11,338 nt of DNA, taken from contig JBBDRK010000013.1 of the NCBI GenBank assembly GCA_040905465.1, positions 1 through 11,338 of the forward strand, in the 5' to 3' direction. Below the pieces are notes generated by a model, which saw only the letters and a program-made list of their open reading frames with translations, searched no databases and was not told the DNA's origin. Source of the stretch: Trueperaceae bacterium. Its GTDB lineage: Bacteria > Deinococcota > Deinococci > Deinococcales > Trueperaceae. Below are positions 3 through 11,338 of the stretch, one piece after another (the first letter of the stretch is position 1; each line of letters begins with the position of its first letter). The position numbers and the translations under genes are program-made.

Positions 3-1454
<1,452 letters not shown>

Positions 1455-1507
1455 TCCAGCCGCCGCCAGCGTTTACCCCTGTTTCAGCGGGTCGCCGGAC
1501 AAACCGA

Positions 1508-2830
1508 TCAGCCAGCCTCCGGCACCGTGCCGGAAAGCCGGTCGCGCAGCAGCGGCTCCAGTTCCGGCCAGTCGATGCCGGTTACCCGTCCGTCGGCCCA
1601 CTGACGGTCGATATCGTCCTGCACCTGGCGAACGACGGGGTGATCCTTGGTCAGCTCGAGGCCAAGATGCTGGCGGATGAGGAAGAGCAGTCCGGCGGCA
1701 CCCGACTGCTTGGTGAGCGAGACCTCGAGCGGACGCCCCAAAAGTCCGGGAACGTCGAACGGAGCGTACATCGGCCAGAACTTGTTGAGGCCGTCGGCGT
1801 GGACTCCTGCCCGGGTACGGTGGGCATCACGCCCATAAAGCGGGTAGCTCGCCGGCAAGCCGTGACCCATCTCCTTGTATAGCTCTGCCAGCGAGTTGAG
1901 GGCATGGAAGTCGGGTGCGAGCCCTTCGTAGTAGCCCATGCCGATGAGATGCAGGAGAACCGCTTCGAGCGGGGCGTTGCCGGTTCGCTCCCCTTTTCCG
2001 AGGCAGGTTCCGTTGATCACGGCACATCCCTCGCGAATGGCCGCCAGGCAGTTGGGGACGATCAGCCAGGTGTCGTTGTGGGGGTGAAACTCCAGGTCTT
2101 CCGGTTCCAGTCCGAGAGCACGCAGTTCCCGAAAGATCCGCGGGACGCTTCTGGGCAAGGCCACATCGTCGTATGGCAGGCCGAGGCCCATCGTGTCGCA
2201 CACCCGGAATTTGGGCCGCAGCTCGCGCCCGTACGAGCCTGCGCTCTCCATTACGGCCTCGACGAACGGGGAGATGAACTCCATCGACGCTCGCGTGGCG
2301 TCCTCGAGGTGCAGCCGCGGCCTTATGCCGGCATCGAGCGCCATCCGCACGGCGTCGAGATACGCTGCAGCGGCGGCGGAGCGCCCTCCCGGCCGGAACT
2401 TGTGGAACGTGTGGTAGTCCGACGCCGAGGCCAGCATTCCGGTTTCCCGGACGCCCAGTTCCCGGATGCGCTCGACATCGGCCTGCAGGGCTCTGATCCA
2501 GGTGGTTGGTTCGATCGGGGCACCTGCCCGGTGACGTTCGAGCGCTCCCGCCAGCGCATCTCGATCGGATGGCCGGTAGGGGAAGAACTCCGCCTGGCGG
2601 ATGGCTCCGGACTCACCGGTGAACTCGCACAGGATGTCGTAGATGCGCAACGACTGGGCAGTGGTGAGCGGCAAGCCGCCCTGTTGGCCGTCCCTGTGAG
2701 TGGTTTCGGTGGTCCAGGCCCCCGCCGGCAGCCCGTTCGGTTTAGGGTCCCACTCGAAGCGGGGGAGAGCGTTCCGGGGGAAGCTGTTCTCGAAGTACTC
2801 CGGTTGCTCGCGGTCAGGAACGCTGTTCAT
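1508..2830 (-). CDS. DRE-TIM acetyl-CoA condensing enzyme, 2-phosphinomethylmalate synthase / Re-citrate synthase clade (440 aa)
   Basis: Motifs ETTHRDGQQ, EPTTWIRA, SDYHTFHKF, HLEDATR, CDTMGLG, HPHND (metal-binding His pair), GERTGNAPLE and RAGVHADG. Start moved from 2857 to the ATG at 2830 because AAGGAG (2842-2837) lies 6 nt upstream. Confidence 0.88.
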   Translation of the reverse strand: MNSVPDREQPEYFENSFPRNALPRFEWDPKPNGLPAGAWTTETTHRDGQQGGLPLTTAQSLRIYDILCEFTGESGAIRQAEFFPYRPSDRDALAGALERHRAGAPIEPTTWIRALQADVERIRELGVRETGMLASASDYHTFHKFRPGGRSAAAAAYLDAVRMALDAGIRPRLHLEDATRASMEFISPFVEAVMESAGSYGRELRPKFRVCDTMGLGLPYDDVALPRSVPRIFRELRALGLEPEDLEFHPHNDTWLIVPNCLAAIREGCAVINGTCLGKGERTGNAPLEAVLLHLIGMGYYEGLAPDFHALNSLAELYKEMGHGLPASYPLYGRDAHRTRAGVHADGLNKFWPMYAPFDVPGLLGRPLEVSLTKQSGAAGLLFLIRQHLGLELTKDHPVVRQVQDDIDRQWADGRVTGIDWPELEPLLRDRLSGTVPEAG

Positions 2831-2836
2831 CGCGCA

Positions 2837-2842
2837 CTCCTT
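2837..2842 (-). promoter_or_regulatory. Shine-Dalgarno site of the DRE-TIM synthase gene
   Basis: AAGGAG 6 nt before ATG 2830, within the 23-nt gap after the GntR stop. Confidence 0.75.
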
Positions 2843-2853
2843 GCTCCGATGCA

Positions 2854-3486
2854 TCAATCGGCAGCGGCGGGAAACTCTGGTCCGTAGGCCAGATAGGCGG
2901 GAAGAGGGCGGTCGGAAGCGGCGCCGGCGGGCGGCTCAGCGAACCTGCCGGTGAGTTGCGGGTCGACCACCGTCAGGTGATAGTCCACGCTGACGTACTC
3001 GGCCGGCGTGAGAGGGACGCACAGCACGGAAGATCCGAGGGCGCTGCCGGCCCGCCGTGCCAGATCGGCCGCTCGCAGGCCGGTGGCGGCCAGGACCGCG
3101 ACCTTCAGGCGTGGTGCCTCCGGTCGAATGACGCCGTGCACTGCTATCGCACGCACCAGGTCTGCCGGATCGAGCCCGGCGGCTCGTGCTCGCTCCGCCG
3201 CCTCGGCGGCCAGCCGGCCGACCAGTGCCCGCTCGAGCCGGCGGGGAGGCGACGGCGCCACCGTGGTACCGGCGCGCTTGCGCTGGGTCAGGTAGCCATC
3301 TTTCTCGAGCGCCCGGTAAGCGCCGGCGATGGTGTTGGGGTTTACCTCCAACCGGTCGGCGGCGTCCTTGATGGTGGGAAGCGAATCGCCGGGTTCCAGT
3401 TCGGCGGTCTCGATCAGCAGGCGGATCTGTTCGGTGAGCTGCTCGTGCAACGGCAGCGGGCTCTGGCGGTCGATTACCAATCGCAT
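2854..3486 (-). CDS. GntR-family transcriptional regulator (YtrA-like wHTH with C-terminal extension, 210 aa)
   Basis: N-terminal IDRQSPLPLHEQL...LEPGDSLPTIKDAADRLEVNPNTIAGAYRALEKDGYL...RAGTTV is a GntR/YtrA winged HTH. It is followed by a short helical dimerisation segment and about 85 extra residues. Confidence 0.92.
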   Translation of the reverse strand: MRLVIDRQSPLPLHEQLTEQIRLLIETAELEPGDSLPTIKDAADRLEVNPNTIAGAYRALEKDGYLTQRKRAGTTVAPSPPRRLERALVGRLAAEAAERARAAGLDPADLVRAIAVHGVIRPEAPRLKVAVLAATGLRAADLARRAGSALGSSVLCVPLTPAEYVSVDYHLTVVDPQLTGRFAEPPAGAASDRPLPAYLAYGPEFPAAAD

Positions 3487-3491
3487 GAACT

Positions 3492-3521
3492 ATTTTCACC
3501 ACCAGGCTAGTTGTTAGTCAA
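3492..3521 (-). promoter_or_regulatory. Putative sigma70 promoter for a leaderless gntR-synthase transcript
   Basis: The minus strand reads TTGACT (3521-3516), N18, GAAAAT (3497-3492), 5 nt, then ATG 3486. There is no SD, and the region is AT-richer than its flanks. The -10 is imperfect. Confidence 0.5.
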
Positions 3522-3580
3522 GCTTTTCGTCCGCTATTACCGGTTGTTACCACTGGTCCGCTAATCTTTCCGTTGGTGCA

Positions 3581-3602
3581 ATCGGAACCGCCGGGCTCCG
3601 AT
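3581..3602 (-). terminator. Stem-loop downstream of the comB-like gene (possible terminator or 3' stabiliser)
   Basis: The minus strand reads ATCGGAGCC-CGGC-GGTTCCGAT, a 9-bp stem with one G-U pair, about 37 nt after the stop. No U tract follows. Confidence 0.35.
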
Positions 3603-3639
3603 ATCGGTCGATGTGCGGACCCTCAGTCGCTAGTAACCC

Positions 3640-4371
3640 TCAAACCACGGTGGGCATTCGAAGCGGCTCGTCCACGAATGTCGCCGGTCGGCGCAGGGAG
3701 CGAATCGGGACGACGCAGGACCTGTTGAGCGCGGCCGCGAACTCGATGTCGGCGGTGAATCCCAGCTGCGCCAAGGTACGTCCGTGGCCGGTGGACATGA
3801 GCGACGCGCCCAGACCAGGACTCGACTCCAGCGCCAACAGCGCGAGTCTGGCGCCATCGTCCAGAGCCGCCTCCGGTTCCAGTTTCAGAAGCTCACGTGC
3901 GATCGAACCCGCGGCGAGGACATCGTCGAACGAGAGCCTGTTCCCAGTGCCGGCACATACCAGTGAGATGCGGTCCTGACTCAGCGAGACCGCCGATTGT
4001 GCCACCGCCCGGGCGTTGTTGATGCAACCCAGGAGGAGTTCGTCCGCTCCGGCGACCTCCTCGACGGCCCGCGACCCGTTGCTGGAACACAGAACGGCGC
4101 ACATCCCCTTCAGATCGCGTCCGACGTACTCGAGGGGCGAGTTCCCGCCGTCGAATCCGTCCAGCTCGACTCCTCCCCGCTCACCAACCAGCAGGGCGCC
4201 TCGAACCGCGGCCAGCTCACGGGCCGCGCCTATGTCCGCCACGACCATCAGCTCTTGCAGGCCGCTCTCGAACAACGCCGCGGCGGTGGTCGTCATGCGC
4301 AGGACGTCGATCACTACGACCACGTCGCCCGACACCTCTGCCGGCAGGTTGTGGCACTCGATCCTCAGCAA
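3640..4371 (-). CDS. comB: 2-phosphosulfolactate phosphatase family protein (ComB-like)
   Basis: Motifs VVVIDVLRMTTT, GERGG, FDGGNSP, SSNGS, LVCAG and SFDD..AAG match the ComB pattern. The TTG start has no clear SD, so the start is uncertain. The substrate is not established. Confidence 0.85.
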   Translation of the reverse strand: MLRIECHNLPAEVSGDVVVVIDVLRMTTTAAALFESGLQELMVVADIGAARELAAVRGALLVGERGGVELDGFDGGNSPLEYVGRDLKGMCAVLCSSNGSRAVEEVAGADELLLGCINNARAVAQSAVSLSQDRISLVCAGTGNRLSFDDVLAAGSIARELLKLEPEAALDDGARLALLALESSPGLGASLMSTGHGRTLAQLGFTADIEFAAALNRSCVVPIRSLRRPATFVDEPLRMPTVV

Positions 4372-4393: not shown

Positions 4394-4876
4394 TCAGCCG
4401 GCGCGCCAGGGATGCCACATCGACTCCTCGTCGGGCAGAGCGTGTCCGGACGTCTTCAGCGCCAGCAGGATCTGCCCGCGATGGTGGGCGTCGTGGACCA
4501 GCATGTGGATGAGATACATCTCCGGGCTGGCGTGGGGCAGCTCCCCCCGTTCACCGGCAGGCGCGTTCACCGCTTCGGCGAGCGCCACGGTGCGGGTCTC
4601 CCTGGCAACCTGGCCGATGCGCCCGGTGTCGGTTTCCGGGATCCACTGGTCGCCGACCCTCTCCGCCAGGTCCGGCAGCTCGGCGAGCCGATCCGGTTTC
4701 AGCTCCATGCCCCAGTGCTTGACCGTCCCGGTGATGTGGGCCAGATGCTCGGCCACCGTCATTCCGCCCCCGGGGGTGCGCGCCTGCAGCATGGCGGCGT
4801 CGAGGTGCTCGATCAGGGCGCCGTTGACCTCGTCGTTCGCCTGCCAGGCGATCTTCAGCGTTTCTCCTGCAGCCAT
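4394..4876 (-). CDS. DinB/YfiT-superfamily four-helix-bundle protein (160 aa)
   Basis: TVAEHLAH and HMLVHDAHHRGQI give the His metal triad of DinB proteins. SD AGGAGG lies at 4889-4884. Confidence 0.88.
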   Translation of the reverse strand: MAAGETLKIAWQANDEVNGALIEHLDAAMLQARTPGGGMTVAEHLAHITGTVKHWGMELKPDRLAELPDLAERVGDQWIPETDTGRIGQVARETRTVALAEAVNAPAGERGELPHASPEMYLIHMLVHDAHHRGQILLALKTSGHALPDEESMWHPWRAG

Positions 4877-4983: not shown

Positions 4984-6315
4984 TCAGTTCTTCTCCATCA
5001 GCAGATCTATCAACAGAGCGGCGCTCCACGAAAATCCGGCGGCGCCGCACGGCGAGCCGTCGCGTGGATCGTAGTACTCGACGAATCCCGACCGTTCCAC
5101 GAGCTCGATGGTATCGCGCCGGATCGCGGCTGCCTCCTCTAAGTAGCCGTATTCGCGCAGCCCGCTTATCAACAGCCAGTTGATGTTGAGCCAGATCGGG
5201 CCGCGCCAGTAGCGGCGCGGTTCGAAGTAAGGGCTGCTCTTGCTGACAGACGGCAGGAAGTAACGGCTGCCTTCGCCCGGTGCGTAGCGCCCCGGGTCCA
5301 GCAGTTGATGGCGAACCAGCCGGCCGGCCTTGTCGGCATCGGCCACGCCGGCATACAGCGGCATCAACGCGGCGCAGGTACTCTCCTCTATCGCCCTGCC
5401 GGCGCGTACGTCCCAGTCGTAATAGAGGCCGGCGGACTCGTGCCACAGGCGCCGATCGAAAGCGGACGCGGCCGCGGCCAGCCAGCCGTCGATTTCCGCT
5501 ACAGGCTCGCCCAACCGCTCGGCCAGTACCCGCAGGTCGCGTTCGTCGCGATACACCAGCGAGTTGAACAGAACGTCCTGAACCAGAAAAGGCGCCTCGC
5601 GGTAAACGGTTTCGTCGTCCCAGCGCTGAGCTCGGTAGCGGCCGATCAGATACATGAATCGGTCGTAATCCCCCGCCTCCGGGCGCTCGCCCGGCTTTAC
5701 GAAGTGCTGGTCCTGCCGCGAGTAGGGCGGCGCGGCCACCTCTCCCAGGCGCTCCAGCGGAGCGGCGAAGCGCGTCGAGTTGTCGGTACCGGACTCCCAT
5801 GGATGGATGATCGCGATCAGCCCGGTTCCGTCCGGATCGCGTGCGCCGTGCAGCCAGCGATGCCAGGCGAGCAGCGACGGGTAGACCTCGCGGGCGAACG
5901 CGGCCGCCTCCTCGTCGTCGGCACGCTCGTACAGGCGCCGAACCGCAGAGGCCACCAGCGGGGGTTGGGTGAACCCGGAAGTTTCGATCGGGGGCCCGCC
6001 GGGCGCGCCTCGGGTTTGCCAGAACTCGGGCGTCGGAAAGTAGTTGGACGCCCCGTGGGGGTAGAGGATGTGGGGAACCATCCCGTTTGCCCATTGGGCG
6101 CGCAGCAGGGTTCGCAGCTCGTCGAATGCCCGCCGCCGGTCGATATGGCCCAGCCCGACGGCGATGAAGGCGGAATCCCAGTTCCATTGGTGCGGGTACT
6201 GGCCCGCGCTCGGTTTGGTGAACAGGCCGGTGTGGTTGTCAGCCAGGATCGTCGCCGCCCGCTCGATAAGCCGGTCGTACCGCGCTTCGCTGTCGCTGTC
6301 GTCAATTTCTGACAT
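4984..6315 (-). CDS. GH63-like (alpha/alpha)6 glycoside hydrolase, glucosylglycerate/mannosylglycerate hydrolase type (443 aa)
   Basis: Motifs YPHQWNWDSAF, GMVPHI, TSGFTQPP, IIHPWESGTDNS, YWRGPIWLNINWL, GFVEYYDP and FSWSAAL are characteristic of the MgH/GgH group. No signal peptide. AAGGAAGG lies upstream. Confidence 0.85.
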   Translation of the reverse strand: MSEIDDSDSEARYDRLIERAATILADNHTGLFTKPSAGQYPHQWNWDSAFIAVGLGHIDRRRAFDELRTLLRAQWANGMVPHILYPHGASNYFPTPEFWQTRGAPGGPPIETSGFTQPPLVASAVRRLYERADDEEAAAFAREVYPSLLAWHRWLHGARDPDGTGLIAIIHPWESGTDNSTRFAAPLERLGEVAAPPYSRQDQHFVKPGERPEAGDYDRFMYLIGRYRAQRWDDETVYREAPFLVQDVLFNSLVYRDERDLRVLAERLGEPVAEIDGWLAAAASAFDRRLWHESAGLYYDWDVRAGRAIEESTCAALMPLYAGVADADKAGRLVRHQLLDPGRYAPGEGSRYFLPSVSKSSPYFEPRRYWRGPIWLNINWLLISGLREYGYLEEAAAIRRDTIELVERSGFVEYYDPRDGSPCGAAGFSWSAALLIDLLMEKN

Positions 6316-6365
6316 TCACCGGTGACCTTCCTTCGTTCACGACGCCCCGCGCGACCTGCTGCGGC

Positions 6366-7634
6366 TCATCCCTTCACGCTTCCGGCAGTCAGTCCGCCGA
6401 CCAGATACCGTTCGAACCAGAAGAAGAGCACCATCACCGGCAAGGTGACTATCACCGCTCCGGCCATCAGGTACTGGCGGGGCACCTCCTGGGAATTGAG
6501 GTTGACCATTCCGCGCGGAAGTGTGAACAGCGCAGGCGAATCCAGGAACATGAAGGCGAACAGGAACTCGTTCCAGGCGATCATGAACACGTACAGTCCC
6601 ACCGAGGCGATCGCCGGCAACGCCAGCGGCAGGGTTATGCGCCAGATGACGCCGCCGCGGGTACAGCCGTCGATCAGCCCGGCTTCCTCCAGGTCGGCAG
6701 GCAACGTCTGGAAGTAACTCCGCAGCATGTAGAGAGCCACCGGTATCGTGGTCGCGGGATAGACGATCAACAGCCCCTGAAGTGTGTCGCGCAGGCCCAC
6801 CTGGGTGAACAGGCTGTACAGCGGCACCACCAGGACGATGGCCGGAAACATGTAGATGAGCAGGATCGACCTCGACAGAGTCTCCCGTCCCGGGAACCGC
6901 AGGCGGGTGACGGCGTAGGCACCCAATATCGCGAGGGTCAACGTGATGATCACGGTTGCCAGGGCGACAAGGGTGCTGTTGAGGATGTAGTTGGCGAAGT
7001 CGAATCTCACCAGCACCTCGCGGTACCCGACCAGCAACTCCGAGAAGCCGCGGCTGAAGTCGATGTTCAGTAGCGTGGGATCACGCAGGAACTCGGCGCG
7101 AGGCTTGAGGCTCGATACCACCATGAAGTAGAAGGGAAAGACCACGATCGACAGGAAGAAGACGAACCCGGCACCTCGCAGCAGCCGCAGAACCAACATC
7201 TCCAGACGGTCGCGCCGCAGGCCGACCAGTTCGATGTCGCGAAGCGAGTAGCGCGTCAGGTGCGCCGCCGCGAACGAGGCCCCGCCCACGCCGAGCAGGC
7301 TCCAGTGACTGGCGGCCGGCCCCATGCCGAACGGATCGAAGCCCGCCCAGGCGAACCAGGCCACGGCAAGCGCTGCTCCGAGACCGAGCGCCGCCGATGG
7401 CGGAGTGTCCTGGTCGCGGCGCACCAGCCCGGCGCCGGCACCGAGCAGCAGGCCCAACAGCAGGGGTTGCTCCACGGCCAGGCGGGGATCGAAGCGGGTG
7501 AGGATGCTCAGCAGGAACACCAGAACGCCGGCGACTGTCACCGTTGAAGCCGTGCCCATGATGGCAGCGGCCAGCAAGCCGACGTTCAGCGCTCTTGCCA
7601 GCCGGGTCCGTTTCGACTCCCTCACCCGTTGCAC
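6366..7634 (-). CDS. Carbohydrate ABC transporter permease, MalG/YcjP-like, with N-terminal membrane extension (422 aa)
   Basis: FPFYFMVVSSLK, NSTLVA, EAA loop LEEAGLIDG, AWNEFLFA and the C-terminal GLTAGSVKG. The GTG start directly abuts the upstream TAG, and GGAGG lies in the end of the upstream gene. Confidence 0.92.
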   Translation of the reverse strand: MQRVRESKRTRLARALNVGLLAAAIMGTASTVTVAGVLVFLLSILTRFDPRLAVEQPLLLGLLLGAGAGLVRRDQDTPPSAALGLGAALAVAWFAWAGFDPFGMGPAASHWSLLGVGGASFAAAHLTRYSLRDIELVGLRRDRLEMLVLRLLRGAGFVFFLSIVVFPFYFMVVSSLKPRAEFLRDPTLLNIDFSRGFSELLVGYREVLVRFDFANYILNSTLVALATVIITLTLAILGAYAVTRLRFPGRETLSRSILLIYMFPAIVLVVPLYSLFTQVGLRDTLQGLLIVYPATTIPVALYMLRSYFQTLPADLEEAGLIDGCTRGGVIWRITLPLALPAIASVGLYVFMIAWNEFLFAFMFLDSPALFTLPRGMVNLNSQEVPRQYLMAGAVIVTLPVMVLFFWFERYLVGGLTAGSVKG

Positions 7635-8921
7635 CTAGGCCCCCTCCGGGACGAATCTGAAGTAGAGCATCATGAACACCGCCAGGATGAAGAACAGAAG
7701 CACGGCAGTTGCGGCGCCGGCGCCGATGTCGGCGCGCGCGAAAGCGTTGTCATAGACCTGGATGGTGAGTGTCTCGGTGCCGGCAGCGCCCCCGGTGAGC
7801 AGGAAGATATCGTCGAACTTGTTGAACGTCCAGATGAAGCGCAGCAGGAACAGCGTGGACAAGACCCCAACGAGCTGTGGCAGGGTGATCCAGCGAAACT
7901 GCTGCAGCGGGCTGGCGCCGTCTACTTCCGCCGCCTCGTACATGTCTCGCGGCATGGCCTGGAAGCGGGCCAGGATGAATAGGAATGCGAACGGAAAATA
8001 GCGCCAGGCTTCGAATGCGATGACGGTGGAGAGCGCCAGCGGAATGCTCAGCGTTAGTCCGAAAAACGCGAGATCGAAGCTGCGTTGGCTCAGAAAGGCG
8101 ATCGGTCGCTCGAAGAAACCGAACTCCACTCCCAGGAGGTTCAGGCTGCCGCTGAACGGGTCCAGGAAGAACGCCCAGGTGAAGGCGACGGCGATGACCG
8201 GTGCCACGTAGGGGAACAGGAACAAGCCGCGCAGAAGCCCTTGGCCGGGAAAGCGTACGTTCAGCAACTGTGCCGCGAACAGGCCGAGCAGGATCGAGAA
8301 GACCGAGCCTCCCAAGGTGTAGCCGATCGTCACCCAGAACGCAGGCCAGAACTCGCTTCCGCTCAAGACGAAACGGAAGTTGCGCAGCGTGAATTCGAGG
8401 TTCGCAAGGACGCCGGCGGCTCGGCCGCTTACGGTAGCGGCGGTCGGGCTCCGCTCGTTCACGCCGGCCCCGAAATACTCGGACGCGGCCACGAACGACA
8501 GTTCCAGGTTCTCGCGCTGGCCGCCCTCCCAGTCTCCGACGAGGCAGCTCAAGCGGTCGTCACGAATCGTGCAGCGTTCGTCGAGTTCGACAGGTTCGAG
8601 CCCGGCCGGCAACGTCGCGCGCAGAGTTACCGCGGCGATACCGGCACGCGGGCTGCTGTTGCGCATCTGGTAGCGCAACTCGAGCAAGTCGCCCGGCGCC
8701 TCGGGAGCGCTCAACACCCGTTCGCGTAACACCGGCACCGGCGGCCGCAGGTCGCCCAGGCGAACCTCCTTGAGGCTGATCCAGAAGTTGGCCAGCACCG
8801 GGAACAGCACCACCAGGAAGACGATGGCGAACCCGGGGGCGAGCATTGCGAACGCCAACCGCCGCTCGCGGGCCGCCAGGCTGCCGGGTGTCCGATTGCG
8901 TGGTCGCTTGGGTACCGTCAT
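7635..8921 (-). CDS. Carbohydrate ABC transporter permease, MalF/YcjO-like, with inserted extracytoplasmic domain (about 428 aa)
   Basis: WRYFPFAF, EAA loop MYEAAEVDGAS, ITLPQL and FNKFDDIFLLTGG. Start placed at ATG 8921 (MTVPKR) because the 9029 start overlaps the SBP gene. Confidence 0.9.
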   Translation of the reverse strand: MTVPKRPRNRTPGSLAARERRLAFAMLAPGFAIVFLVVLFPVLANFWISLKEVRLGDLRPPVPVLRERVLSAPEAPGDLLELRYQMRNSSPRAGIAAVTLRATLPAGLEPVELDERCTIRDDRLSCLVGDWEGGQRENLELSFVAASEYFGAGVNERSPTAATVSGRAAGVLANLEFTLRNFRFVLSGSEFWPAFWVTIGYTLGGSVFSILLGLFAAQLLNVRFPGQGLLRGLFLFPYVAPVIAVAFTWAFFLDPFSGSLNLLGVEFGFFERPIAFLSQRSFDLAFFGLTLSIPLALSTVIAFEAWRYFPFAFLFILARFQAMPRDMYEAAEVDGASPLQQFRWITLPQLVGVLSTLFLLRFIWTFNKFDDIFLLTGGAAGTETLTIQVYDNAFARADIGAGAATAVLLFFILAVFMMLYFRFVPEGA

Positions 8922-8931
8922 GACGGGCGGA

Positions 8932-8954
8932 GTGGGGCGCGCGTGGCGCCCCAC
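8932..8954 (-). other. Intercistronic stem-loop after the binding-protein gene
   Basis: GTGGGGCGC (8932-8940) and GCGCCCCAC (8946-8954) form a perfect 9-bp inverted repeat with a 5-nt loop, 10 nt after the SBP stop. Confidence 0.65.
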
Positions 8955-8964
8955 CGAACCGCGC

Positions 8965-10296
8965 TCAGCGCTGGAGCGCTTCCACTTCGAGTTGCAGGAC
9001 CGACGCTGTCTCCTCGGCGGTGCGTTCACCGTCGATGAAGTCGCGGACGCCTTCGGACATTACACGCGTTCCATAGAGCGCCGACACCAGGGCACCCTGG
9101 CCCTCACGGTAACCCCAGCGACTGGCCTGGTCGAGGCCGGCCACTATGTCCTCGATCACGTCCTGTTCGTAGAAATCGCCGAGGGGCGCCTTACGGTCCA
9201 CACCCACCTCGAGCTGAGACCACTGCTCGACGAAGTCTCGGGAGCCGCTCTCCGCGCCACGCCGAACCGGGAACGTGCCTTCGGCCGCGATCGAGAGGGT
9301 GTCGATGTAGCCCTCAGTCATCGAGTACTCGACGAATCGCTGGGCCGACTCGATATCGGCGTCGACGGTGATGCCGTAGTAGCGCACGTCTGCCCAGCCG
9401 GCACCCTCGGGGTTGCTGGGGCCTGCGATGCGGGCGACGAAGCCGGAGTTGCGCGCCAACGTGCCGGACTCCTTGTCGGCATCGTAGGTCACTGGGGCCT
9501 CGTCGCGAAGTCCGGCCAGTTCGTCGAGGATGAAGGGCGACCAGACGATCATGGCGGCGTTGCCCGCGAAGTAGAGCTCGCGCGACTGCTGCCAATACAG
9601 GTTGCCGGGCGGGCTGGCGTCGACCAGCTCGTTGTAGAACTCCAGGGTCTCCACCATTTCGGGGGAGTCGACGGCGACATTGCCTTGTTCGTCGACCAGC
9701 CGCACGCCGTTGGCCAGGGCCATGTGTTCGAACACCTGCATCATGTAGTCTTCGCCCGGATCGGTCGCCGCCACGAATCCGTACATGTCGGGCGGATCGT
9801 GGAGCGCCTCGACGCCGGCGCGAATGCTCTCGTAGTCGGTCGGCGGAGCCAGGCCCGCCTCCTCGAACAGGTCGGCTCGATACACCAGTAGCTGAGTCCA
9901 GCCGCTGTGTGGCACCGCCGCCCAGCCGTCCTCGAAGCGCACCAGGTCCAGAGCGCCGGCACCGTATGTGTCCTCGCCAAGATTCTCCACGACTTCGGTA
10001 GCGGCGAACGTGTCGAGGATCCCCTCTTCGGCCCAGCCGATGCTGCGGGACAACGGGTGGTAGATGATGTCCGGCAGGCTGCCGGCCGCAAAGGCGGCCG
10101 TTGCACGCTCCCCTAGCGCGCTCTCGGTAACGGGCACCACTTCCACACTGATGCCTGTCTCCGCCTCGAAGTCGGCGGCGATACGGTTCTGGACTTCGAG
10201 GCGCTCGGGCTGCTCCTCGGTGGTCCACAGCACCAGTTGAGCGTGGGTGACGCCGGCCATAGCCAGCAACACGATCAGAATTTGGAATTTGCGCAT
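8965..10296 (-). CDS. Sugar ABC transporter substrate-binding protein, family 1, YcjN-like (443 aa)
   Basis: Signal peptide MRKFQILIVLLAMAGVTHA|Q with no lipobox Cys. Motifs FEAETGISVEVVPV, GSLPDII, LVYRADLFEEAGL and FAGNAAM. GGAGG lies 5 nt upstream of ATG 10296. Confidence 0.92.
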   Translation of the reverse strand: MRKFQILIVLLAMAGVTHAQLVLWTTEEQPERLEVQNRIAADFEAETGISVEVVPVTESALGERATAAFAAGSLPDIIYHPLSRSIGWAEEGILDTFAATEVVENLGEDTYGAGALDLVRFEDGWAAVPHSGWTQLLVYRADLFEEAGLAPPTDYESIRAGVEALHDPPDMYGFVAATDPGEDYMMQVFEHMALANGVRLVDEQGNVAVDSPEMVETLEFYNELVDASPPGNLYWQQSRELYFAGNAAMIVWSPFILDELAGLRDEAPVTYDADKESGTLARNSGFVARIAGPSNPEGAGWADVRYYGITVDADIESAQRFVEYSMTEGYIDTLSIAAEGTFPVRRGAESGSRDFVEQWSQLEVGVDRKAPLGDFYEQDVIEDIVAGLDQASRWGYREGQGALVSALYGTRVMSEGVRDFIDGERTAEETASVLQLEVEALQR

Positions 10297-10360
10297 GCAT
10301 GCCTCCAATTGAAGTTGCGATCAACGAAAGTGGAACGGCCGATATCTCCTCGGTCCAGCA

Positions 10361-11338
10361 TCACCTCCCCGGAAATGCGCGGCGGACGTTGACCGAATCG
10401 CGTTTGATGAGCCGCGCGGCGATCGAGATGTGTTGCACGACGTCGTCGCCACCGAGGGCGTCCAGCAACCTGCTGGCGGCGGCCCGGCCCATCGCCCGGG
10501 CAGGCTGACGTACGGTGGTAAGGGGTGGATCGAGATAAGCGCTCCAGGGAAGGTCGTCGAAACCGACGACCGAGATATCTTCCGGTATGCGTACTCCGGC
10601 GGACCGGGCCGCGTGGTACAACCCCACTGCTACCCGATCGTTGGTGCATACGACCGCGCTGACGGCATCGTGGCCGGGTAGCCCGGACAACAGCTCCGCA
10701 CCGGCGCGCAGGCCACCCCCTTCGCGGGAGTCGCTCTCCAGCATCGGGCCCGGCTCGAGCCCTCGAGAACGAGTCACCGACTCGAAGCATTGCCGTCGTT
10801 CGACTCCGTCGCGACGTACCCCGGCTATGTGCGCGATTCCGGTATGACCCAGCTCGATCAGGTGCTCGACTGCGGCGCTCACGCCGCTGTGGTTGTCGAG
10901 GCACAAGGTGGTGAACTCGTCGCCGTCGACAGGCCATTCGCGTTGGACGAGGACGGTTGCCGGGCCTCCCCTCAGGAGGGACTTCAGCTTGCCCGGTTCC
11001 AGCTGACTGCCGATGAGCACCAGGGCGTCCACCCGTCGCGCCAGCAGGAGCTCGAGCGCCGCCTCCTCCTGGGCAAGGCTTCGGTTGTCGGTGACCATCA
11101 TGTAGTGCATTCCCAACGGTTCGAGAACGTCCTCGATTCCCCTGGCCATCTGTGCGTAGAGCGGGCCGATGACGTCGGGAATGAGCACGCCGATCACCCC
11201 CGTCTTGCCGGTCACCAGTCCGCGGGCGAGATCGTTCCGGCGATAGTTGAGCTTGGCGACCGCCTGCTCTACCGCGCTTCGGGCCCGTGGCGACACATGC
11301 CCACCGTTGAGAACTCGGGAGACGGTCGCCGTAGAAAC
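10361..11338 (-). CDS. LacI-family transcriptional regulator (5'-truncated)
   Basis: The frame is open to the window edge and reads VSTATVSRVLN (LacI HTH), then LNYRRNDLARGL (hinge), CTNDRVAVG, IPEDISVVGFDD and PPLTTVRQP. Confidence 0.95.
   Translation of the reverse strand, partial: VSTATVSRVLNGGHVSPRARSAVEQAVAKLNYRRNDLARGLVTGKTGVIGVLIPDVIGPLYAQMARGIEDVLEPLGMHYMMVTDNRSLAQEEAALELLLARRVDALVLIGSQLEPGKLKSLLRGGPATVLVQREWPVDGDEFTTLCLDNHSGVSAAVEHLIELGHTGIAHIAGVRRDGVERRQCFESVTRSRGLEPGPMLESDSREGGGLRAGAELLSGLPGHDAVSAVVCTNDRVAVGLYHAARSAGVRIPEDISVVGFDDLPWSAYLDPPLTTVRQPARAMGRAAASRLLDALGGDDVVQHISIAARLIKRDSVNVRRAFPGR

Follow-up and report, generated by a model that had tools for sequence, protein, structure and literature searches.

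The question raised by this locus is what an enzyme resembling Pms/PmmS of phosphinothricin-tripeptide biosynthesis may be doing outside a phosphonate gene cluster. The window analysed here is an 11,338-nucleotide stretch of a Trueperaceae bacterium genome (contig JBBDRK010000013.1), and a profile search of its genes bore out the first-pass annotation in that it holds no PEP mutase, aconitase-like or other phosphonate gene. We consider it very likely that the gene at 1508-2830 encodes an active, intact condensing enzyme of the Re-citrate synthase/Pms family under the control of a local regulator. The full reading, in which oxaloacetate is the substrate and the enzyme would serve as a GntR-controlled, conditional second citrate synthase of the Re type, has in our judgement an even chance of being correct.

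The synthase gene and its enzyme family

A single open frame spans positions 1508-2857 in minus-strand translation, and it carries every string quoted in the first-pass annotation, namely EYFENSFP, ETTHRDGQQGGLPL, AEFFPYR, GAPIEPTTWIRA, SDYHTFHKFRPGGR, HPHNDTWL, NCLAAIREGC and HADGLNKFWPMYAPF. The coordinates 1508-2830 given there are exact, and the strand, which had been left unstated, is the minus strand, since translation of the same coordinates on the plus strand yields an unrelated sequence with a stop. Read directly, the stop codon occupies 1508-1510 and the ATG 2830-2828, which delimits a coding sequence of 440 amino acids for a DRE-TIM (HMGL-like) acetyl-CoA:2-oxoacid Claisen synthase of the Pms-like/Re-citrate synthase family. 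A Shine-Dalgarno sequence, AAGGAG at 2842-2837, is located 6 nt 5' of this ATG within the 23-nt spacer (2831-2853, minus strand) between gntR and the synthase gene; an alternative start, TTG at 2857, shares nucleotides with the gntR stop codon. This is no chance frame, because it has a Pfam match, many database homologues (more than 7,700 proteins match, and the best 120 of these are at least 70% identical) and a dN/dS value of 0.10 relative to the same-genus orthologue. The gene is under purifying selection.

The protein matches Pfam HMGL-like PF00682 with 82.5 bits (cut-off 29) and is a member of the DRE-TIM metallolyase superfamily, in its Claisen-condensation-like group. Its AF2 model (pLDDT 94.2) consists of alternating beta/alpha elements and ends in a short helical subdomain, and Foldseek matched the model best, with TM values of up to 0.81, to the catalytic domains of homocitrate synthase, MAM synthase and LeuA. 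That no LeuA regulatory domain is present, as had been noted earlier, is upheld by this short C-terminal end and by PF00682 being the sole Pfam match. The best solved-structure match is homocitrate synthase (PDB 6ktq, 3ivt, 2ztj; sequence E 1.4e-20), with TMq/TMt values of 0.73-0.74/0.80-0.81 when normalised by query/target length, but the identity is only 23-24% and the REGEQ motif of homocitrate synthase contrasts with RDGQQ in the synthase.

The catalytic motifs are ETTH-R46-D47-GQQ, E176-D177-x-T179-R180, D212-T213, H249-P-H251-ND and H344-ADG. In an alignment of 32 sequences, R46, D47, E176, D177, H249, H251 and H344 were invariant or nearly so. In LeuA and homocitrate synthase, catalytic roles belong to the Arg-Asp pair, the HxH metal ligands, the strand 5 Glu/Asp and the His of the C-terminal H-x-D-G. 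The clade to which the synthase belongs and the clade of canonical Re-citrate synthases jointly conserve 54 positions, including R46, D47, Q50, W111, R113, S137, D138, H140, E176, D177, T179, R180, D212, T213, H249, H251 and H344. The QQ pair after RDG, W111 and S-D-Y-H are missing from the LeuA-like and homocitrate synthase-like paralogues of the same genome in this alignment.

An additional isozyme of isopropylmalate, citramalate or homocitrate synthase could be suspected, as by sequence the protein matches homocitrate and isopropylmalate synthases best in both NCBIfam and the PDB. All scores are, however, far below the curated cut-offs: against the LeuA and citramalate synthase models the best LeuA-type score was 93.4 (cut-off 517) with no match to LeuA_dimer, and against the homocitrate synthase models (NifV/LysS) the scores were 134.6 versus 462.9 and 86.4 versus 413.55. 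Moreover, the genome already has two LeuA/CimA-like genes and one homocitrate synthase-like gene with a REGEQ motif, and these paralogues branch outside the whole Re-citrate synthase/Pms family (SH-aLRT 99, IQ-TREE). We therefore regard an extra isozyme as very unlikely, and the original assignment to the Re-citrate synthase/Pms type, as opposed to LeuA, CimA or homocitrate synthase, holds.

Relationship to Re-citrate synthases and Pms

Re-citrate synthase (C. kluyveri / S. aciditrophicus type, EC 2.3.3.3, K05942) was represented in our comparison by a canonical clade with the motifs DTTFRDGQQ and HGHNDF, which was identified by JGI labels and taxa and contains no named, assayed Re-citrate synthase. 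The taxa of this clade are Clostridia MAG proteins, Oceanidesulfovibrio, Holophaga and Gaiellales, and the homologues of its representatives P0131 and P0135 are Clostridia and Gaiellales/Chloroflexota MAG proteins. Its members share with the synthase a DRE-TIM domain without the LeuA regulatory domain, a similar length and the elements RDGQQ, W-I-R, S-D-Y-H, E-D-x-T-R, LPRSVP and GERTGN, but they are only 32-40% identical to it (13 sequences; at most 43% overall). The synthase clade itself is tight: its members, from Deinococcota, Chloroflexota and elsewhere, are 65-88% identical and fall into one 50%-identity cluster. It carries ETTHRDGQQ and HPHNDTW in place of the canonical motifs, and among the cluster representatives compared this pair was confined to it.

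A quick IQ-TREE reconstruction of 61 rows, which included no assayed enzyme and no FrbC anchor, placed the synthase clade (9 rows, SH-aLRT 98) inside an 18-row group (97); the 38 rows of the canonical DTTFRDGQQ/HGHNDF type formed a group of their own, with an SH-aLRT of only 83. Together, the motifs and the separate branch set the synthase apart from ordinary Re-citrate synthases. The alignment revealed nine positions that sharply divide the two clades. Three of them flank catalytic residues (F to H45, I to T141 and G to P250), and two of these are changes from a hydrophobic to a polar residue.

The first-pass annotation had gone further and placed the protein closer to Pms than to the clostridial Re-citrate synthases. 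The separation from the canonical clade is borne out by our data, and the closer likeness to Pms is supported only indirectly, by how JGI labels are divided: among the top 120 matches of the synthase clade, 20 of the 38 labelled proteins are named '2-phosphinomethylmalic acid synthase' and 2 'citrate (Re)-synthase', versus 0 pmmS and 19 'citrate (Re)-synthase' labels in the canonical clade. Pms/PmmS (EC 2.3.3.18, K15311), under which these labels place the synthase clade, occurs in a different setting, as neither the synthase genome nor 50 other carriers of the clade have PEP mutase or phosphinothricin-type genes. Pms accepts oxaloacetate as well, and its metal requirement is like that of Re-citrate synthase. 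It is plausible that Pms was recruited from the synthase clade, and if Pms nests within it, the clade would be the primary-metabolism source of the citrate synthase-like step in the phosphinothricin pathway. A search of plasmids at E≤1e-20 gave no FrbC-like match and recovered two Deinococcus members of the clade plus five Mesorhizobium matches, four annotated as nifV and one in an unannotated record. The FrbC-type enzymes of plasmids would thus be more distant than NifV.

Dedicated regulators of the synthase gene

Two neighbours of the synthase gene had been overlooked in the earlier annotation, a GntR-family gene at 2854-3486 and a ComB-family gene at 3640-4371. The former lies upstream on the same (minus) strand and encodes a protein of 210 amino acids with an N-terminal winged HTH domain (residues 14-76; PF00392, 47.3 bits) followed by two linker helices. 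With this domain and with Foldseek matches to the YtrA-type structures 6sbs, 3neu and 4r1h, the regulator belongs to the GntR family and is YtrA-like. The C-terminal end forms a small alpha/beta domain with the conserved tail EFPA(G/A)AD, for which neither a family or known ligand-binding match nor a fold match beyond the YtrA-like part was found. A weak match of the GntR protein to BusR (rank 31) was also seen.

A sigma-70-like promoter, TTGACT-18-GAAAAT, is located at 3492-3521 on the minus strand and ends 5 nt before the gntR ATG (1 site found versus 0.2 expected in shuffles). The gntR-synthase mRNA would accordingly be near-leaderless. Four of nine GntR-type loci have TTGACT 35 nt upstream of the start codon. 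Between the -35 and -10 elements, at 3498-3511 on the same strand, lies an operator-like inverted repeat, ACTA-N6-TGGT (consensus ACTA-N6-TAGT). In each of the nine GntR-type loci the repeat recurs 23 to 26 nt upstream of the gntR start with no more than one mismatch, and these loci, 49,686 nt in total, hold only 12 such matches. A scan of positions 1300-4100 found no terminator-like site and so none between gntR and the synthase gene. The two genes have the layout of a two-gene operon and, judged from this arrangement, are co-transcribed, with the synthase second and expressed from the near-leaderless promoter. GntR would most likely repress this operon through the ACTA-N6-TAGT-like palindrome, and repression would be lifted once a metabolite releases GntR from the DNA.

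At other loci, the same synthase clade follows the same logic of one enzyme gene with one dedicated one-component regulator, but the regulator differs. In 39 of 80 loci, and in 20 of the 30 Deinococcota loci, the divergent neighbour is an HTH domain fused to a full citrate synthase fold (PF00285, 231 bits), whereas the GntR loci (the window and seven other Deinococcota) have the unrelated GntR/YtrA-like protein upstream on the same strand. The HTH-citrate synthase regulators keep a His and R-P-R in 28 of 28 sequences, and GFGH, DPR and an Asp in 27 of 28, which are ligand-binding (oxaloacetate/citrate) and catalytic residues of citrate synthase. One His of a catalytic motif is replaced by Cys or Ser in all 28. 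These features fit a protein that would sense oxaloacetate, citrate or acetyl-CoA and thereby control a citrate-type synthase. Two unrelated dedicated regulators, one GntR-like and one enzyme-derived, on one enzyme gene amount to a natural experiment in regulator replacement.

Because it is the '2-methylcitrate synthase/citrate synthase II' model that the citrate synthase-fold regulator of other loci matches best, and because the genome has a single PF00285 gene, we considered a Re-type 2-methylcitrate synthase acting on propionyl-CoA and oxaloacetate. Against this, no PrpD exceeded the cut-off in the genome (28.4 versus 32.1 bits) and no member of the isocitrate lyase/PEP mutase superfamily is present there as a methylisocitrate lyase. 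2-Methylcitrate would therefore be a dead end, and we give this reaction very little credence.

Carrier genomes and the acceptor substrate

Searches for pepM and gltA, as proposed in the first-pass annotation, gave clear outcomes. In the own genome (95% complete), PEP mutase had no match at E≤0.001 with either TIGR02320 or Pfam PEP_mutase PF13714, and none of the 50 other clade-bearing genomes exceeded the TIGR02320 cut-off (best 134.6 bits versus 319.55). We therefore reject the phosphonate reading. That the enzyme makes 2-phosphinomethylmalate or 2-phosphonomethylmalate from phosphinopyruvate or phosphonopyruvate, as suggested by the JGI label and by the motif likeness to Pms noted in the first-pass annotation, is exceedingly improbable in view of these results and of the lack of an aconitase-like or phosphonate neighbour; the substrate options of this kind raised earlier are effectively excluded. 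By the same evidence, the 'orphan' position is nothing special: members of the clade normally stand apart from phosphonate clusters, as all 50 other carriers lack PEP mutase.

The database label that names the branch a phosphinothricin enzyme, or 2-phosphinomethylmalate synthase, is probably wrong for the whole of it, because none of the 51 carriers examined has PEP mutase. Metagenome surveys that count pmmS as bialaphos/phosphonate biosynthesis probably count the synthase clade; in one example, PMC12874732, pmmS accounts for 7% of the signal related to phosphonates in soils.

The genome does have a Si-citrate synthase, GltA (454.8 bits), which is its single PF00285 gene, and a canonical Si-citrate synthase of at least 396 bits is present in 47 of the 50 other carriers. 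The synthase is accessory for this reason, and in neither the own genome nor these 47 carriers does it stand in for a missing Si-type enzyme. In the textbook picture, the Re-type enzyme replaces the Si-type enzyme in anaerobes. The synthase clade departs from this picture, being accessory, tightly regulated and horizontally mobile in aerobic lineages, where it occurs beside Si-citrate synthase rather than in its place and with a transcription factor of its own.

The preferred reading is that the enzyme would catalyse a metal-dependent Claisen condensation of acetyl-CoA with a 2-oxo-dicarboxylate, without an allosteric LeuA-type domain. The most likely reaction would be that of acetyl-CoA and oxaloacetate to citrate, probably of the Re-face type, so that the synthase may be a second citrate synthase that is induced under certain conditions and complements the housekeeping Si-type GltA. 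Its citrate would enter the ordinary aconitase/TCA route, and the genome has an AcnA-type aconitase. The regulator is the sole recurrent neighbour of the synthase in the 80 loci, with no conserved downstream pathway genes, and for that reason the product must go to general metabolism.

A plain citrate synthase would nevertheless be redundant where GltA coexists, as in the own genome and in 47 of the 50 carriers. This duplication, the dedicated ligand-responsive regulators and the clade-specific H45, T141 and P250 beside catalytic residues, which could indicate a different substrate, speak for the same chemistry with another acceptor, either an analogue of oxaloacetate or a different polar 2-oxoacid (e.g. 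3-sulfopyruvate or hydroxypyruvate), giving a non-citrate product in an undescribed short pathway or in detoxification. 3-Sulfopyruvate is a candidate in the own genome, because the ComB-family 2-phosphosulfolactate phosphatase gene (198.8 bits) lies directly upstream on the same strand and a ComA phosphosulfolactate synthase gene, split over two contig ends, is present elsewhere. The sulfopyruvate option of the earlier annotation thus finds one hint locally, but no support across the clade: ComB adjoins the synthase at no other locus examined, the same-genus genome included, and ComA occurs in 9 of 50 clade-bearing genomes, which is close to the control rate (3 of 14). Furthermore, the own genome has no Ldh_2-type sulfolactate dehydrogenase, conserved downstream pathway genes are absent, and in the alternative regulator the sensor domain has retained the residues with which citrate synthase binds oxaloacetate or citrate. 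We consider another acceptor possible, though not probable. The broader proposal that the clade as a whole is no citrate synthase, but joins acetyl-CoA to a more polar oxaloacetate analogue to form, for example, sulfomethylmalate, with Pms recruited from this pre-adapted branch, appears unlikely. If the acceptor were an oxaloacetate analogue, a new small-molecule pathway would reside on mobile two-gene cassettes in aerobic soil and sediment bacteria.

A literature search found no assayed member of the ETTHRDGQQ/HPHNDTW clade, which is large and highly conserved (more than 7,700 matches) and is present in many Chloroflexota. Its culturable carriers include Calidithermus chliarophilus DSM 9957, Thermosporothrix hazakensis and Deinococcus wulumuqiensis. 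Counting against the preferred reading, its distribution is patchy: 72 of 301 Deinococcota genomes carry it, as do 9 of 102 in the own family. Copies are sometimes decayed: at least five matches have in-frame stops, and one plasmid copy is split.

The synthase and its place in the family

The synthase is encoded by a single ORF on the minus strand (1508-2830; 440 aa), the likely start being the ATG at 2830, which is preceded by AAGGAG 6 nt upstream. All protein strings quoted in the first-pass annotation were recovered from this one ORF in the minus-strand translation (2857 to 1508), and the plus-strand translation of the same coordinates is nonsense with a stop. HMGL-like (82.5 bits, residues 42-303) is the sole Pfam domain; a LeuA_dimer match is absent, in agreement with the earlier view that the protein has no LeuA regulatory domain. 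The top NCBIfam model is nifV homocitrate synthase (134.6 versus a cut-off of 462.9), and the synthase scores far below every cut-off of the LeuA/CimA models. By sequence, the nearest solved structure is Sulfolobus homocitrate synthase (E 1.4e-20). The AF2 model, built from 32 sequences (pLDDT 94.2, pTM 0.91), has homocitrate synthase, MAM-synthase and LeuA catalytic domains as its top fold matches. The Pfam, NCBIfam, sequence and fold matches therefore confirm that the synthase is a catalytic-domain-only DRE-TIM Claisen synthase. A dN/dS of 0.10 relative to the same-genus orthologue, obtained at a nearly saturated dS of 1.58, indicates purifying selection in this lineage. The gene is real and is an ordinary member within its own clade.

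A word-index search gave 7,711 significant matches among 8,000 scored candidates, with identities of 70% or more for the top 120. When every protein of a 50%-identity representative library was scored against the synthase, 3,428 representatives had E≤1e-3. One representative, P0122 (72% identity), stands for the whole of the window's clade in this library; the next full-length representatives do not exceed 43%, and one truncated representative reaches 47%. Of the 43 representatives that are 380 aa or longer, P0122 alone has ETTHRDGQQ and HPHND in common with the synthase, and a D/S/C-T-T-F/L-RDG motif, mostly with HGHND, is present in all others in which the motifs were located. In a quick IQ-TREE analysis (61 rows, LG+G4, SH-aLRT support only), the synthase falls in a 9-row clade (98), whose sister consists of two truncated, divergent representatives (99), followed by a 7-row clade without the Arg-Asp and first-His motifs (97). 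This 18-row group stands apart from a 38-row canonical group, supported at only 83, which takes in Oceanidesulfovibrio, Holophaga and Clostridia-MAG proteins. The LeuA/CimA-like and homocitrate-synthase-like paralogues of the window's own genome lie outside the whole family. In a 32-sequence alignment, 54 positions are conserved jointly in the window's and canonical clades, all catalytic residues among them, and only nine positions discriminate cleanly between the two (E42/D, H45/F, A104/P, T141/I, F145/L, P250/G, R266/L, M298/L and Y300/G). Judged by its conserved residues, the catalytic apparatus of the Re-citrate-synthase/Pms family is intact in the synthase. The window's clade is thus an uncharacterised, mislabelled variant of this family with an active-site signature of its own.

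In the 7-row clade (P0161, P0167, P0169, P0179, P0195, P0256 and P0244), both the Arg-Asp pair (DSTLGQG, for example) and the initial His of HxH have been lost, and by these motifs its members appear to be catalytically dead; JGI nonetheless labels one of them 2-phosphinomethylmalic acid synthase. For several Re-citrate-synthase-like proteins of the canonical clade (P0130, P0277, P0285, P0523, P0530) the NCBI name is 'histone-lysine N-methyltransferase', apparently through propagation of a misannotation.

Among the best 120 matches of the synthase, JGI assigns the label '2-phosphinomethylmalic acid synthase' to 20 proteins and 'citrate (Re)-synthase' to 2, and a further 16 bear the generic COG name. 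The best 120 matches of two canonical-clade queries include no Pms label and 1 and 18 Re-citrate synthase labels, respectively. This split agrees with the likeness to Pms noted in the first-pass annotation and suggests that, of the two reference enzymes, Pms lies closer than Re-citrate synthase to the window's side of the tree, but since labels can propagate, it is no proof of proximity to Pms. Re-citrate synthases comprise two distant sequence types, HM1_2993 sharing about 28% identity with the enzymes of C. kluyveri and S. aciditrophicus, and Re-citrate synthase genes are frequently annotated as homocitrate or isopropylmalate synthase (PMC12016533). A Kuenenia gene shares 55% identity with the C. 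kluyveri enzyme (PMC8027424), the KO of Re-citrate synthase is K05942 (PMC11964587), FrbC is a homocitrate-synthase homologue (PMC8942020), and in soils pmmS has been taken as a signal of the bialaphos pathway (PMC12874732). No study of the window's clade was found in the portions covered of the literature on Pms/PnMM synthase or Re-citrate synthase.

Regulators coupled to the synthase

Regulators are the only genes that recur beside the synthase in 80 related loci. In the window, a 210-aa GntR protein is encoded immediately upstream on the same strand (2854-3486, minus), separated by 23 nt that contain a Shine-Dalgarno site; no terminator-like site was found between the two genes. The gntR promoter (TTGACT-18-GAAAAT) ends 5 nt ahead of the ATG. 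A palindrome, ACTA-N6-TAGT with at most 1 mismatch, lies 23-26 nt ahead of the start codon in 9/9 GntR-type loci, and at this stringency only 12 matches occur in 49.7 kb of such loci. Together, gntR and the synthase gene form a two-gene operon that looks autoregulated. The AF2 model of GntR (pLDDT 75.7, built on 9 sequences) shows a winged HTH, a pair of helices of the kind seen in YtrA-type GntR proteins, and a small C-terminal alpha/beta domain (residues ~125-210, beta-alpha-beta-beta-alpha) that matched nothing in Pfam, NCBIfam or the PDB folds. A conserved EFPAGAD-like tail, with P206, A209 and D210 as its only invariant residues, closes all nine orthologues, and in the window it directly precedes the synthase gene.

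The best 30 Deinococcota loci include 8 of the GntR type (the window among them), 20 of a second type and 2 cut by a contig end. The second type, found at 39 of the 80 loci (e.g. locus L009, 4651-5859) and also at L087 and L088 on Deinococcus plasmids, has a divergently encoded protein of about 400 aa in which an HTH_17/MerR-type domain is fused to an entire citrate-synthase fold (PF00285, 231 bits, yet under every NCBIfam citrate-synthase cut-off). The first His of its LHA(D/E)H motif, which corresponds to the catalytic His274 of pig citrate synthase, is replaced in 28/28 full-length copies (by Cys in 25 and Ser in 3), and the remaining catalytic and ligand-binding motif residues are retained in 27-28 of the 28. 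From these residues the protein looks like a sensor derived from an enzyme, and it probably acts as the transcription factor of the synthase. A literature search for a helix-turn-helix together with citrate synthase and pyruvate carboxyltransferase found nothing relevant.

Accessory status and acceptor substrate

The genome to which the window belongs (3.53 Mb in 81 contigs, 95% complete) was searched for a Si-type citrate synthase, as proposed in the first-pass annotation, and has a standard GltA (454.8 bits); an AcnA-type aconitase gene is also present, broken by a contig end. Likewise, a canonical citrate synthase scoring 396 bits or more occurs in 47 of the 50 other carriers. Of the three exceptions, one genome has none, one only weak or fragmentary matches, and one only a regulator-type protein and a contig-end fragment. 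The synthase is therefore an accessory enzyme and not the cell's citrate synthase. The gene was found in 72/301 sampled Deinococcota genomes, a count that includes one genome flagged as unpublished (G301), and in 66/260 genomes of good quality. Per family, it occurs in 9/102 genomes of the window's own family and in 58/112, 4/62, 0/14 and 0/10 of others. At least five matches in Deinococcota genomes have an in-frame stop and several are split; on two Deinococcus megaplasmids the gene lies amid transposases, one copy being split. In aerobes, genes of the window's clade have an accessory role, are coupled to regulators and are mobile.

A phosphonate role was rejected. The own genome has no match to the TIGR02320 PEP mutase model or the broader Pfam PEP_mutase family, and none of the 50 other carriers has a match above the TIGR02320 cut-off (best 134.6 bits versus 319.55). 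The description of the synthase as an orphan outside a phosphonate cluster consequently holds for the own genome but is nothing peculiar, since with 0/50 carriers encoding PEP mutase it is the rule for the clade. At least one of the weak matches to the PEP mutase model, in genome G020, adjoins a citrate-synthase-like gene, the pattern expected of a methylisocitrate-lyase-type relative. A methylcitrate role is unlikely here, the own genome having neither PrpD above cut-off nor any member of the isocitrate-lyase/PEP-mutase superfamily.

A link to sulfopyruvate could be read from two further genes of the own genome. One lies directly upstream of the operon on the same strand (3640-4371, minus) and encodes a ComB-family (2-phosphosulfolactate phosphatase) protein of 243 aa (PF04029, 198.8 bits). 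The other, of the ComA family, is split between two contig ends (C25 and C70) and stands between TctC and TctB transporter genes. However, ComB adjoins the synthase in no other examined locus, including the same-genus one, ComA occurs in only 9/50 carriers versus 3/14 control genomes, and no Ldh_2-type sulfolactate dehydrogenase was found in the own genome. The adjacency is therefore probably coincidental. Contig C66 holds a 40%-identical paralogue of the ComB-like protein.

In the mechanism that we favour, GntR would repress the operon until it binds a metabolite, and the synthase would then join acetyl-CoA and oxaloacetate to form citrate. Oxaloacetate is proposed because the synthase has residues common to the canonical clade but not to the LeuA and homocitrate synthase paralogues, because no pathway partner gene is present, and because a citrate-synthase-fold sensor would govern the same enzyme elsewhere. 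Citrate production would, however, duplicate GltA, and polar substitutions adjoin the catalytic residues (H45, T141 and P250), so that there is a substantial chance of the acceptor being a different 2-oxoacid.

Other genes of the window

The contig start truncates a UvrA-like ABC ATPase to its C-terminal part (3-1454, plus), whose gene runs convergently towards that of the synthase, and a DinB-family protein is encoded upstream of the ComB-like gene (4394-4876, minus). A block of genes for sugar utilisation occupies 4984-11338 (minus). It encodes a LacI regulator, a solute-binding protein, an MGH1-like glycoside hydrolase (369 bits, mannosylglycerate-hydrolase type) and two ABC permeases (422 and 464 aa) whose N-terminal extensions are long. 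From about 6500 to 9000 the AT skew has strongly positive values (0.19-0.29).
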